A stretch of 63,468 nt of DNA, taken from the NCBI GenBank assembly GCA_030596125.1, contig JAUVKT010000004.1, positions 1 to 63,468 of the forward strand, read 5' to 3'. Of the stretch, positions 3,690-52,095 are shown one piece after another. The notes beneath the pieces were generated by a model. That model worked only from the letters and a program-made list of their open reading frames with translations, was not told the origin of the DNA and searched no databases. Positions within the stretch are counted from its first letter, which is position 1, and each line of letters starts with the position of its first letter. The stretch is from Bacteroidales bacterium (GTDB lineage: Bacteria > Bacteroidota > Bacteroidia > Bacteroidales > VadinHA17). The position numbers were made by a program, and so were the translations under genes.

Positions 3690-4508
3690 ATGCTACGATT
3701 AATAAAAATTGAGTGGGCAAAGGTCTCATCCTATAATCTGTTCAGGGTAATATTAATTATGACAGGATCACTTTTTCTGTTGGTGCTTTTTGTCCTGTCG
3801 CGGATAGACATTTCTGTTCCCGGCTTCTCCACCAGAAATATTGTGAGATTTCCTAATATATGGCAATCGTTTGTATGGGTAGCGAGCTGGTTTAATGTAT
3901 TGCTCGCAATACTGGTTATTGTACTTACAGGTAATGAGTTTGCTTCAAAGACCTTCAGGCAGCAGGTTATGAGCGGGCTAAGCAGGAATGAGTGGCTCGC
4001 GGGAAAGGGTATCCTGATTGTAGGACTGGCCCTGTTCGGACTTATTCTAATAATACTTGCAGCATTAATTTATGGTGTGATATTTACAAGGGATATGACC
4101 CTTGGATTGATCTTTGAAAACAGTTCAATACTGTTTGTATACTTTTTACAGTCAATAGGTTATATGGTATTGGGACTACTTTTTATAACGGTGTTGAGAT
4201 CTAATGCTCTCGGAATAATATTGTACCTCTTATATTTTATATTTATTGAACCTATAACCCGTTTGCTTTGTCCGGTCGAGGTCAGAGGCTGGTTTCCTGT
4301 TAAGATTATCAGTCACCTTACACCGATACCCGAATTTTTGCAGTTAGCATCTCAGAATGGTAATCTGCAGACCGATAATTTTTCTTTCGAGAGTATGGGA
4401 TTGATTGCAAAACAGCTTTCTCAGACAGTAACCCTTGCGATGGCTGTTTTTTATGTAATTCTGTTTAGTTTCCTTACCTGGCTGGTAGTTCGGAAGAAAG
4501 ACCTGTAA
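3690..4508 (+). CDS. ABC-2 family transporter permease
   Basis: 272-aa polytopic membrane protein starting 16 nt after the ATPase gene, the typical ABC-2 pair arrangement. Confidence 0.7.
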   Translation: MLRLIKIEWAKVSSYNLFRVILIMTGSLFLLVLFVLSRIDISVPGFSTRNIVRFPNIWQSFVWVASWFNVLLAILVIVLTGNEFASKTFRQQVMSGLSRNEWLAGKGILIVGLALFGLILIILAALIYGVIFTRDMTLGLIFENSSILFVYFLQSIGYMVLGLLFITVLRSNALGIILYLLYFIFIEPITRLLCPVEVRGWFPVKIISHLTPIPEFLQLASQNGNLQTDNFSFESMGLIAKQLSQTVTLAMAVFYVILFSFLTWLVVRKKDL

Positions 4509-49496: not shown

Positions 49497-50849
49497 TCAT
49501 GATATTTTAGCCAGGCTGGCATTTATCTCCGCATCGGCTAATTCATGATCAACCAGTTCCCCTGAGAAATATTTATCATACGCCATAAGATCAAAATGAC
49601 CATGTCCGCTTAGGTTAAAAAGAATTGTTTTAGGCGTGCCTTCCTTGTCTGCTTTTTTAGCTTCATCGATAGCTCCGGTAATCGCATAATTAGCTTCGGG
49701 AGCAGGAATGATCGCCTCTGTACGGGCAAACAACACTCCGTTATCAAAGCACTCTTTCTGGTATTTTGACTGTGCTTCAATCAGCCCGTCTTTCAACAAC
49801 TGGCTTACAAGTACTCCTGCACCATGATATCTCAGACCGCCTGCATGAATTTTAGCAGGTACAAAATTATGACCAAGAGTATACATTGCTAAAAGCGGTG
49901 TCAAACCAACTGAATCACCAAAGTCATACATAAACTTACCTCTCGTAAGTTTCGGGCATGAAGCCGGTTCGATAGCCACCATTCTCGTATTTTTGCCGTT
50001 AAGAATATTTTCCCTGATAAATGGGAATGATATCCCGGAAAAATTTGATCCGCCTCCGAAACAGCCAACAATTATATCAGGATAGTCTCCTGCTTTCTCC
50101 ATCTGCAGGAGGGCTTCTTCTCCTATGATGGTTTGATGCATGAGTACATGGTTTAATACGCTACCCAAAGAGTATTTTACATCAGGATTTTTTGCCGCTC
50201 TCTCAACGGCTTCTGATATTGCTATCCCAAGACTGCCGGGCGAATCAGGGTCCTGATTCAATATTTGTTGTCCTGCTTCAGTAAGGTTGCTGGGAGAAGG
50301 TATGACTGAAGCATTATATGTATTCATCATCATTTTGCGGTAAGGTTTCTGCTCATAACTAATCTTTACCATAAACACTTCAAGATCGATACCGAAATAT
50401 TGACATGCAAAACTCAGGGCACTTCCCCATTGTCCGGCTCCTGTTTCAGTTGTAAGCTTCTTAACGCCTTCCATTTTATTATAATAGGCCTGTGGTATAG
50501 CGGTATTGGCTTTATGAGATCCGGCATAACTAAGTCCCTCGTACTTGTAATAGATTTTACAGCTGGTGCCGATGGCTTTCTCAAGTGCCGATGCCCTGAA
50601 AACAGGACTTGGACGGTATGTTTTGTATAGCTCCAGTACTTCCTCCGGAATATCAATAAACCTGTCGGTTGCCGCCTCCTGTTTTATCAGCTCCATCGGA
50701 AACAGAGGCAAAAGGTCCTCTGGTGTAATAGGCTCTTTTGTAGCGGGATGCAGTGGAGGAAGGGGCTTATTCGGCATATCGGCCATTATGTTATACCATT
50801 TTGTCGGCATTTCATTCTCATTAAGGGTAATCTTCTTAAAGTTTTTCAT
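49497..50849 (-). CDS. trpB: TrpB2-type tryptophan synthase beta-like PLP enzyme (stand-alone)
   Basis: 450 aa, longer than TrpB1. The PLP-lysine context is GLSYAGSHKANTA, with a GGGSNFSG glycine loop. No trpA or other trp genes are in the window. Confidence 0.88.
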   Translation of the reverse strand: MKNFKKITLNENEMPTKWYNIMADMPNKPLPPLHPATKEPITPEDLLPLFPMELIKQEAATDRFIDIPEEVLELYKTYRPSPVFRASALEKAIGTSCKIYYKYEGLSYAGSHKANTAIPQAYYNKMEGVKKLTTETGAGQWGSALSFACQYFGIDLEVFMVKISYEQKPYRKMMMNTYNASVIPSPSNLTEAGQQILNQDPDSPGSLGIAISEAVERAAKNPDVKYSLGSVLNHVLMHQTIIGEEALLQMEKAGDYPDIIVGCFGGGSNFSGISFPFIRENILNGKNTRMVAIEPASCPKLTRGKFMYDFGDSVGLTPLLAMYTLGHNFVPAKIHAGGLRYHGAGVLVSQLLKDGLIEAQSKYQKECFDNGVLFARTEAIIPAPEANYAITGAIDEAKKADKEGTPKTILFNLSGHGHFDLMAYDKYFSGELVDHELADAEINASLAKIS

Positions 50850-50889: not shown

Positions 50890-50921
50890 AAAAAAAAGGC
50901 ACGCTGTGAACAGCGTGCCTT
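50890..50921 (-). terminator. Intrinsic terminator inside the trpB2 5' leader (putative attenuator terminator)
   Basis: The minus strand reads AAGGCACGCTG-TTCA-CAGCGTGCCTT followed by T8, ending ~40 nt upstream of the trpB2 ATG. Confidence 0.7.
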
Positions 50922-50943
50922 AAGAAGTAATTTGTATATTTTA

Positions 50944-51018
50944 TTACATAACGGTCTGTATCACAGTATAATTATTTATTCTGTGCCACCGCCAATTATG
51001 TAGAGTTATCTTAAACAT
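50944..51018 (-). CDS. Candidate 24-codon Trp leader peptide MFKITLHNWRWHRINNYTVIQTVM
   Basis: ATG 51018-51016. Trp codons at 50994-50992 and 50988-50986. Double stop TAA TAA at 50946-50941. It lies between a -7 box and the terminator above. Confidence 0.5.
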   Translation of the reverse strand: MFKITLHNWRWHRINNYTVIQTVM

Positions 51019-51050
51019 CGTGTCAAAATTAAGAATTATTTTAAAGTTTC

Positions 51051-51058
51051 CAAATTTA
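51051..51058 (-). promoter_or_regulatory. Candidate -7 promoter box TAAATTTG (TAnnTTTG) for the leader/trpB2 transcript
   Basis: Exact consensus match on the minus strand, 32 nt upstream of the leader ATG. Confidence 0.4.
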
Positions 51059-51324
51059 TGGTAATGTTCAGTGCCGTTGTTATTATCTTTTCCAGGCAGG
51101 TGTATTATACGCTTATTCTGATTACCCCGATTCTGATTTGTAACGGCAGAATGAAGTTTGGATTTATTTGAATTTAACTCTGCTTTTTTATCATTTTATA
51201 TTTTATTGTCTGTGAGTTATCTGCTGTTTTGCTTTGAAATTGATTATTAGATAGTTATTTTTAGAGAGAAAAATTTTCAGAAATATGCAATAATCATTTT
51301 CTGATCTAACCTAAAACAAGTATC

Positions 51325-52095
51325 ATGAGTAATGAATCATTCAACTTTGGGAGTTTTCTAAAAGATTCTGTAGATTCTGTATTAAACCCCAAAAATTATT
51401 TTTCATCCCTGAATATTGAGGGAGGAATTGGTGAGCCGGTTATCAAAGCTTTGATTTATGGGGCTCTTTCAGGTATTTTCGCTTTTCTGTGGAGTGTTCT
51501 CAACATCTCAGGGTTTACCGGAGGGATGTTTGGGGGTGCAATTGGTATTGCGGTCTTTATCTGGGCAATTGTAGGAGCAGTAATAGGTCTCTTTATCGGG
51601 GCAGTTATTGTTCTTATTATTTCTGCTATATGCGGTGGAAGCACCGATTATATTGCCAATGCCCGTGTAACTGCATCACTTATGGTGCTTATGCCTATCA
51701 GTTCACTCTTCGGGTTTTTAATCGGTATTAGTGGACCTCTCTCAGCCGTAGTGAGTCTTCTTATTAATATTTACGGACTCTATATGCTCTATTTTGCCCT
51801 GGTCGGGCCATTGAAGGGGAAAGAGAGTTCTGCGAAGGTTTTAACATGGATACTGGTAGCGGTACTTGCACTTTTTCTTGTTATAGGCCTCTTTACGAAA
51901 AAGGCAGCGAATAAATTTCTCGACCAATATGGCATTGATACAGAGGAAATGGGGAAAGATCTTGAGGAGATGGGGGATGATCTTGAGAAAGGTCTTAAGG
52001 ATCTGACAAAAGATCTCGAGGAGGCTCTTGACGAAATTGTGGAAAAAAGCGAAGAAGAAAGCGAAGAAGAAGGCGAAGAGGAAATCGAAGAGTAG
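51325..52095 (+). CDS. Yip1-like membrane protein with an acidic C-terminal tail
   Basis: N-terminal soluble segment, 5 glycine-rich TM helices, then a K/E/D-rich tail (..EEESEEEGEEEIEE). Confidence 0.65.
   Translation: MSNESFNFGSFLKDSVDSVLNPKNYFSSLNIEGGIGEPVIKALIYGALSGIFAFLWSVLNISGFTGGMFGGAIGIAVFIWAIVGAVIGLFIGAVIVLIISAICGGSTDYIANARVTASLMVLMPISSLFGFLIGISGPLSAVVSLLINIYGLYMLYFALVGPLKGKESSAKVLTWILVAVLALFLVIGLFTKKAANKFLDQYGIDTEEMGKDLEEMGDDLEKGLKDLTKDLEEALDEIVEKSEEESEEEGEEEIEE

Follow-up and report, generated by a model that had tools for sequence, protein, structure and literature searches.

A probable ribosome-mediated tryptophan attenuator ahead of stand-alone trpB2 genes in Bacteroidales

The closest described relative of the element reported here is the Bacteroid-trp leader (RF01692) of Weinberg et al. 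(2010), a Bacteroidetes motif that apparently controls trpB and trpE (PMC2864571, Additional file 1). It was published as a presumed peptide leader with "a loosely conserved hairpin", with no consensus diagram and no antiterminator, and the structure line of its seed alignment holds a single hairpin of the kind that we call P1 below (PMC2864571). Where the motif is cited, it is as an in-silico prediction only (PMC6414381), and we found no experimental test of it in the literature. Here we analyse a candidate attenuator on the minus strand of a 63,468-nucleotide stretch of Bacteroidales DNA (contig JAUVKT010000004.1 of assembly GCA_030596125.1; hereafter the window), where a promoter, a mini open reading frame (ORF) with two tryptophan (Trp) codons and an intrinsic terminator precede a stand-alone trpB2 gene. 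TrpB2 proteins are widespread ‘orphan’ paralogues of the tryptophan synthase β-subunit that make Trp from indole; their physiological role is debated, with indole salvage the leading idea. A TrpB2 of Bacteroides thetaiotaomicron (BT_RS23500) helped Escherichia coli ΔtrpA to grow better only if wild-type E. coli cells were cross-feeding it, an effect that the authors attributed to secreted indole (PMC11535334). An attenuator ahead of a Bacteroidota trpB2 was not found in the open-access literature. We propose that the element very probably attenuates transcription by the classic three-structure scheme, with a translating ribosome sensing Trp and the monocistronic trpB2 as its dedicated target. 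The computed basis comprises the sequence elements, their conservation, the covariation of three helices and the folding behaviour, from which we infer the transcription start site (TSS), where ribosomes would sit, how the structures would compete kinetically and the response to Trp. The principle of a Bacteroidota Trp leader is already known from Bacteroid-trp; new are the trpB2 target, an explicit antiterminator and a probably leaderless layout.

Scanned against Rfam at gathering thresholds, the window returned no match. RF01692 matches with 25.2 bits (E = 2.2), short of its gathering score of 49, which none of 17 orthologous leaders attains, and RF00513 (Trp_leader, the E. coli trpL family) matches with 24.5 bits where 41 is required; filing the element under either family was rejected on score. 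Three of the 17 orthologs (L050 at 3858–3961, L063 at 3858–3961 and L075 at 3859–3963) pass RF00513 with 42.5–44.3 bits, and automatic annotation would give them the ‘wrong’, proteobacterial family. The parts of the predicted attenuator and its target in the window are as follows.

51051–51054, minus strand: candidate −33 element TTTG, putatively assigned, at the 3′ end of TAAATTTG (51058–51051)
51024–51031, minus strand: −7 box TAATTTTG of the form TAnnTTTG, 5 nt ahead of the leader ATG, with the TSS predicted at 51019 or 51018
50944–51018, minus strand: leader ORF MFKITLHNWRWHRINNYTVIQTVM, 24 codons plus TAA (ATG at 51018, stop at 50946–50944, a second TAA adjoining)
50986–50994, minus strand: putative sensing codons UGG-CGG-UGG (Trp-Arg-Trp), a W-x-W found in 71/71 leaders with the conserved terminator
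50980–51003, minus strand: region 1, the 5′ strand of P1 (anti-antiterminator) in the minimum free energy (MFE) fold, with both Trp codons inside
50944–50967, minus strand: region 2, the 3′ strand of P1, whose core CUGUGAUACAGACC (50966–50953, CUGUGA…CC) is also the antiterminator 5′ strand
50904–50919, minus strand: antiterminator 3′ strand, GG (50919–50918) plus CUGUUCACAG (50913–50904)
50890–50921, minus strand: intrinsic terminator AAGGCACGCTG-TTCA-CAGCGTGCCTT, an 11-bp stem (50921–50896) with 7 G-C pairs and the T-run
49497–50849, minus strand: trpB2, the regulated gene, a stand-alone TrpB-like pyridoxal phosphate enzyme of 450 aa

The minus-strand positions that the original prediction gave for TAAATTTG, the 24-codon ORF, UGG-CGG-UGG, the hairpin and the trpB2 ATG all check out. 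Its description of a hairpin followed by eight T holds for the run itself (50897–50890); the last two stem pairs use two of these residues, and six follow the 11-bp stem. The leader stop and the terminator hairpin are separated by 22 nt, and 40 nt lie between the end of the T-run (50890) and the trpB2 ATG.

Comparative data carry the argument. A protein-anchored scan with one genome per species gave 80 TrpB2 loci, almost all from Bacteroidales or Bacteroidota metagenome-assembled genomes and encoding proteins 69–83% identical to that of the window, and we searched their upstream regions for terminators and, separately, for short ORFs containing W. The TrpB2 relatives and the TAnnTTTG box themselves point to a Bacteroidales-like host for the window. 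The trpL-type order of promoter, mini-ORF, terminator and trpB2, noted earlier at this single locus, is kept in 70 of the 80: a W-x-W ORF lies at about −165 and a terminator with the nearly invariant arms GGCACGCUG / CAGCGUGCC at about −70, with GUG as the start codon in two of the 70. The other ten comprise one locus cut by a contig end, one (L029) with the terminator only, and eight without the element, which are mostly labelled as other Bacteroidota orders. A covariance model (R1) built from the 70 orthologs, with the window left out, scores the window at 101.8 bits (E = 2.1e-21; 51020–50889 (−), model positions 1–133 of 133), its training members scoring 90.6–140.4 bits. The check proposed with the original prediction, for a conserved ORF with clustered W codons plus a terminator at orthologous loci, is thereby borne out. 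The leader is the only strong R1 match in the 63-kb window, and no second copy was found in the window or in the 80 loci (about 9 kb each), the weaker matches being reverse-strand terminators. R1 also finds members that Rfam misses or labels as proteobacterial Trp leaders. L029 (3904–3978) has no leader ORF and no Trp codons; its terminator, which the covariance model matches alone at 33.5 bits, directly follows the stop codon of an upstream gene with an aroA-family-like C terminus, and the locus looks like a natural leader deletion.

A metagenome scan blind to the downstream gene used the pattern ATG, 21 nt, TGGNNNTGGNNCAS, gap, CTGTG, gap, CACAG and returned 80 loci, 66 of them true leaders, two of which are cut by a contig end; the remaining 14 are chance matches, GC-rich and with neither terminator nor −7 box. 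A TrpB2 gene begins 154–189 nt past the leader ATG in 64/64 assessable cases, and we therefore regard this leader type as dedicated to trpB2; some of the proteins are merely 55–60% identical to that of the window. These counts also bear on the simplest alternative, that a W-containing ORF and a terminator meet by coincidence in an AT-rich intergenic region. The leader holds two Trp codons only and small ORFs are abundant, with 734 of 10–60 aa in the window. Six of these contain W.?W, and the leader ORF alone combines it with a terminator within 90 nt, in a window whose long ORFs contain 1.17% Trp. Together with conservation at 70 orthologous and 66 metagenome loci, the R1 score and the covariation in three helices described below, this makes coincidence vanishingly improbable, and we take it as already refuted by the comparative data.

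The conservation pattern of the mini-ORF is that of a translated frame. An ATG or GTG stands exactly eight codons ahead of the first UGG in 71/71 aligned leaders, and a stop codon occurs within the first 13 codons in 0/71 in the leader frame, as against 68/71 and 32/71 in the other two. The peptides contain two Trp residues in 56 leaders and three (WWW) in 15. Beyond W-x-W-(R/C/H)-S they are weakly conserved and bimodal in length (14–16 or 23–24 codons), and their recurrent "AV..AVI" tail reflects a constraint on the RNA, because the nucleotides are kept whether in frame or out of frame. The stop codons fall at alignment columns 51–57 or 78–81, flanking region 2, so that a terminating ribosome would occlude region 2 in both length classes. 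Detection by the terminator, which is independent of the UGG codons, recovers W-x-W in every complete locus with the conserved terminator except L029.

The leader RNA has an MFE of −45.7 kcal/mol (z = −5.45; 0/200 shuffles as good), and its MFE structure consists of P1 and the terminator. P1, the hairpin over the Trp codons that the original prediction had put forward as a pause structure, is thus real; it pairs columns 24–30:77–83, 33–37:71–75 and 42–47:60–65, corresponding in the window to 51003–50980 with 50967–50944. In the family alignment, pairing holds for 91.5% of P1 cells, compared with 22–47% when the partner is slid, and compensatory changes occur at 37:71 (GC 24, CG 19), 27:80 (UA 43, CG 7), 24:83 and 29:78. 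An alternative register of the outer stem, 25–30:78–83, was rejected at 55% paired, the register i + j = 107 of the window MFE giving 88.7%. Terminator cells are paired in 92.9% of cases, with double changes at eight pairs; slid controls for the three helices range over 22–47%.

An antiterminator had not been found by eye at this locus, and in this respect the original prediction is superseded: region 2 pairs with the terminator, and covariation supports both pairings of region 2. Its segment GCUGUGAA (columns 60–67) is complementary both to C(G/A)CAGC just past the Trp codons and to UUCACAGC (columns 122–129), made up of the terminator loop with the four bases that open the 3′ arm, and GCC (columns 72–74) pairs with the GGC that opens the terminator 5′ arm (columns 112–114). 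The helix 60–67:122–129 is paired in 95.6% of cases, with both-sided changes at 60:129 (AU four times), 65:124 (AU five times), 66:123 (UA twice) and 67:122 (UA seven times), and the pair 74:112 is CG in 54 leaders, UG in nine and UA in six. Taken together, the two helices are 88.7% paired, as against 25–42% in slid controls. Because columns 122–125 are loop positions of the terminator, conservation and covariation there are unexplained by the terminator hairpin. Between the close relatives L050 and L063, three linked positions have changed together (C74U/G112A/C134U), and many members have a longer antiterminator, with an added A/U-rich stretch (UUAUAUA with UAUAGAG). A covariation-supported antiterminator is thus now explicit for Bacteroidota Trp leaders.

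Folding gives the mutually exclusive structures expected of an attenuator. When columns 24–52 were kept unpaired, as by a ribosome at the second UGG, and the transcript was cut after CAGC, region 2 folded onto the terminator in 70/71 leaders, with a mean of 15.0 pairs compared with 3.2 when region 2 was shuffled. Without this mask, 61/71 leaders form P1 and no antiterminator, and in the full-length transcript the terminator is the MFE structure in most leaders. Under the stall mask, the window leader adopts the antiterminator as its MFE structure, 12 bp at −12.1 kcal/mol (50966–50953 with 50919–50904; CUGUGA:UCACAG, ACAG:CUGU and CC:GG), the 3′ strand of which spans the terminator 5′ arm, the loop and the first three nucleotides of the 3′ arm. 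With the ribosome placed at the stop codon instead, the antiterminator does not form. Downstream of region 2, the spacer that leads to the terminator carries an A-U-A core, usually AAGAUAU or GGAUAAU, which is kept in 65/71 leaders (columns 94–98 of alignment A1) and recurs in the Bacteroides seeds of Bacteroid-trp; the window copy (about 50938–50930, −) is degenerate. No consistent pairing partner for this AUA/GAUA block was found in the leader alignment.

The conserved −7 box lies close to the mini-ORF. A TAnnTTTG box stands exactly 5 nt 5′ of the leader start codon in 59/71 leaders and 3–6 nt from it in 64/71. The Bacteroidota −33/−7 consensus is TTTG/TAnnTTTG (PMC6847099, PMC7366714), and in Flavobacterium johnsoniae and Flavobacterium psychrophilum the −7 box spans −12 to −5 with the TSS 4–5 nt further on (PMC6847099, PMC9723704), a spacing that would place the TSS of the window at G 51019 or A 51018. 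The leader ORF is thus probably leaderless or nearly so, a layout shared by few mRNAs in the phylum: 5′ untranslated regions (UTRs) shorter than 10 nt make up about 3.7% in B. thetaiotaomicron (PMC7366714), and leaderless mRNAs 5.5% in F. psychrophilum (PMC9723704). The original prediction had placed the −7 box at TAAATTTG (51058–51051), 32 nt upstream of the ORF. That sequence is present as described, but as a functional −7 box it is displaced by the conserved proximal TAATTTTG, and it is more likely the source of the −33 TTTG; its TTTG (51054–51051) sits 19 nt 5′ of TAATTTTG, and a TTTG lies 17–24 nt upstream of the −7 box in about 30 of 64 orthologs. In five loci (L028, L039, L042, L049 and L060) the leader ATG follows the TAnnTTTG box at about 32–45 nt, which leaves room for a normal 5′ UTR, and two (L044 and L047) have no such box within about 85 nt of the ATG; the leaderless layout is therefore common, not obligatory.

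Could the same three structures be toggled without a ribosome, by a Trp-activated RNA-binding protein, uncharged tRNA-Trp or a small ligand, with the UGG triplets conserved for pairing or binding and not as codons? Several features would suit such a switch: the first UGG lies within P1, where it pairs with a conserved (G/A)CC(G/A) segment; the middle codon of W-x-W follows its RNA partner (columns 37:71) and not the amino acid; and the spacer holds a partnerless AUA block to which such a factor could bind. A switch of this kind leaves unexplained why the start codon is fixed eight codons before the UGG, ahead of a frame that is open in 71/71 leaders while the other frames are rich in stops, why the second UGG is invariant although unpaired in the P1 consensus, and why the stop codons are placed around region 2. 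The Rfam scan of the window gave no riboswitch or T-box match, and the position of the −7 box would make the AUG the first codon transcribed. We therefore consider a translation-independent switch very unlikely.

In the ribosome-mediated attenuator that we favour, transcription would start at the leader AUG, or 1 nt before it, from the −7 box TAATTTTG, and a ribosome would load on the leaderless or near-leaderless mRNA and translate the 24-codon ORF. When charged tRNA-Trp is plentiful, the ribosome would clear UGG-CGG-UGG and reach the stop codon, where it would cover region 2; alternatively, after its release, region 1 would re-pair with region 2 to form P1. With region 2 covered or held in P1, the terminator would fold and transcription would end about 40 nt ahead of trpB2. 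A shortage of charged tRNA-Trp would stall the ribosome at the UGG codons, where it would mask region 1, and the freed region 2 (CUGUGA-ACAG-CC) could pair with the terminator bases as they emerge (GG…CUGU-UCACAG), so that the antiterminator would form ahead of the terminator and RNA polymerase would read into trpB2.

Several points weigh against this mechanism or temper the evidence for it. The full terminator is always thermodynamically ahead of the antiterminator (about −22 versus −12 kcal/mol in the window), and the model therefore requires, like that of E. coli trpL, that kinetics decide the outcome during transcription. The antiterminator of the window falls short of the consensus strength in the family and has an A-C mismatch at 60:129, and the leader has two Trp codons only. 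The covariation statistics are uncorrected for phylogeny, and because the alignment was anchored on TGGNNNTGG, the invariance of UGG is partly by construction. The leaderless start, in turn, leans on spacing rules from Flavobacterium, another organism.

The target gene and its surroundings are consistent with dedicated control. Profile matches identify the 450-aa product as TrpB2-type (NF009057, 716.7 bits; TIGR01415, 620.4 bits), in agreement with the orphan trpB2 called originally. The neighbour 3′ of trpB2 is convergent and the neighbour 5′ of it divergent, from which it follows that trpB2 is monocistronic. The first gene 5′ of the leader (51325–52095) lies on the plus strand, so the terminator has no upstream gene to serve, as had been noted; that it serves some other gene is ruled out, there being no plus-strand T-run and no minus-strand gene upstream. 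No TAnnTTTG box was seen in the 40-nt gap that leads from the terminator to the trpB2 ATG, and expression of trpB2 therefore appears to need read-through of the leader terminator.

This last point speaks to a further alternative, in which promoter, mini-ORF and terminator make up a small gene in its own right, encoding a small RNA (sRNA) or micropeptide, and trpB2 has a promoter of its own. Attenuator transcripts can act in trans, as do rnTrpL and peTrpL of Sinorhizobium (PMC7968998, PMC7298713), and sub-threshold Rfam sRNA matches overlap the terminator. Besides the lack of a visible box ahead of trpB2, this explanation has to contend with the fixed distance to trpB2 in all assessable cases of the gene-blind scan, with a peptide of 14 to 24 aa that is unconserved outside W-x-W-(R/C/H)-S, and with antiterminator covariation that would have no role in a stand-alone sRNA. 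An independent small gene is very unlikely on these grounds; a trans role on top of attenuation may exist.

How, then, does the element relate to described leaders? Bacteroid-trp shares its phylum and the arrangement of an AUG, about eight codons and a run of UGG in the 5′ strand of a hairpin, with an AAAGGC…-type terminator downstream, and the RF01692 model alignment sets the window's AUG, UGG-NGG-UGG and hairpin in register. Both groups carry a AUACAUAU-UGG block and AAGAUAU ahead of the terminator. Many Flavobacteriia and Cytophagia seeds of Bacteroid-trp have a TAnnTTTG box 4–6 nt before the AUG, as do the trpB2 leaders; these seeds are probably leaderless, as many Bacteroidota Trp leaders probably are. 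In the Bacteroides and Parabacteroides seeds the box lies about 27 nt upstream of the leader AUG (PMC2864571, supplementary files 14 and 136). Folded with the same masks, 8/8 Bacteroid-trp seeds place region 2 onto the terminator 5′ arm and loop with 14–21 pairs (GUCGUGA…AGCC with GGCU…UCACGAC), the core pairing words being GCUGUGA/UCACAGC in the trpB2 leaders and GUCGUGA/UCACGAC in most of these seeds. A hidden Markov model of the trpB2 leaders matches the trpE leader of NZ_AAWS01 nearly end to end (E = 1.6e-13, 40 bits), with weak matches to four further seeds (E = 1e-4 to 3e-3), these E-values referring to a tiny database of eight seeds. The groups differ in their targets: all Bacteroid-trp seeds with flanks examined lie at the head of a trp operon, ahead of a gene for a TrpE-like protein or, in Parabacteroides and in a related seed (NZ_AAXE02), for a canonical TrpB1 (MKTYQVD.NGYYGEFGGAYVPE…), whereas the trpB2 leaders stand ahead of stand-alone trpB2 only. 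The window element thus falls outside Bacteroid-trp in both score and gene context, and most likely it works in the same way and is a diverged relative.

The resemblance to E. coli trpL (RF00513) is one of logic. In both, the Trp codons lie in region 1, the pairings 1:2, 2:3 and 3:4 are alternatives, and a weaker antiterminator must win kinetically against a G+C-rich terminator. Unlike trpL, the trpB2 leader belongs to another phylum and promoter type, has no Shine–Dalgarno sequence and no 5′ UTR, being probably leaderless, and serves one salvage-type gene in place of the trpEDCBA operon. Its antiterminator goes beyond the terminator 5′ arm, which is all that the E. coli one covers, to take in the loop and the first part of the 3′ arm. 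The likeness is probably convergent. The actinobacterial trp leader-peptide attenuators of Seliverstov et al. (2005, PMC1262725) likewise keep a short motif and the words complementary to it at three positions, gGCC-rGCy-GGCC in their case and CACAG/CUGUG/CACAG here, each serving two alternative helices; their sequences and phylum are unrelated to those of the trpB2 leaders. The ‘trpB2A’ of that paper is a second Corynebacterium operon, and the passage that names it shows no tie to the stand-alone TrpB2-type gene treated here.

A Trp-codon attenuator implies that TrpB2 would be made when charged tRNA-Trp is scarce. Such control fits a Trp-producing or salvage role and would argue against an unrelated function, and its conservation ahead of stand-alone trpB2 across Bacteroidales provides a regulatory clue to the induction of TrpB2 by Trp limitation. 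Joining these strands, we tentatively offer a wider reading whose parts may not all hold: the AUG would be the 5′ end of the transcript, so that ribosomes load on it as it emerges from RNA polymerase, a built-in coupling in a phylum without Shine–Dalgarno sequences; the element would constitute a separate, dedicated response to Trp starvation, directing indole salvage by TrpB2, often beside aroA, independently of the canonical trp operon; and the transcript of about 130 nt could add a trans role like that of rhizobial rnTrpL.

The genes around trpB2 in related loci are a further tie to aromatic amino acid biosynthesis, and the frequent placement of trpB2 after aroA likewise favours a Trp-producing or salvage role. 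Directly upstream on the same strand, 43 of the 80 orthologous loci carry aroA (TIGR01356, 344 bits), about 230–1500 nt from the trpB2 start (L001–L080; for example L055, L063 and L025), and the leader, its own −7 box included, is placed between the two genes. Other same-strand upstream genes encode a DAHP synthase/chorismate mutase-like fusion (five loci) or are hisF-like (six) or leuB-like (four). In the window, the position where relatives carry aroA is taken by the divergent gene, which encodes a Yip1-like membrane protein.

The divergent region also contains the direct repeat reported earlier, ATTCTGATT twice, which is exact and reads AATCAGAAT-CGGGGT-AATCAGAAT on the minus strand (51138–51130 and 51123–51115). 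As a part of the element it was dropped: none of the 80 related loci has it, and in about 10% of loci some exact 9-mer repeat occurs in the equivalent region by chance. The repeat (51115–51138) may serve the divergent gene as a site peculiar to this lineage, or it may itself be due to chance. Two Logan metagenome contigs, SRR18936874 and SRR18936875, encode a TrpB2 identical to that of the window; in both, the leader ORF is uncalled and a 37-aa ORF is called on the opposite strand of the intergenic region (window 51058–51171, +), a call that is probably spurious.

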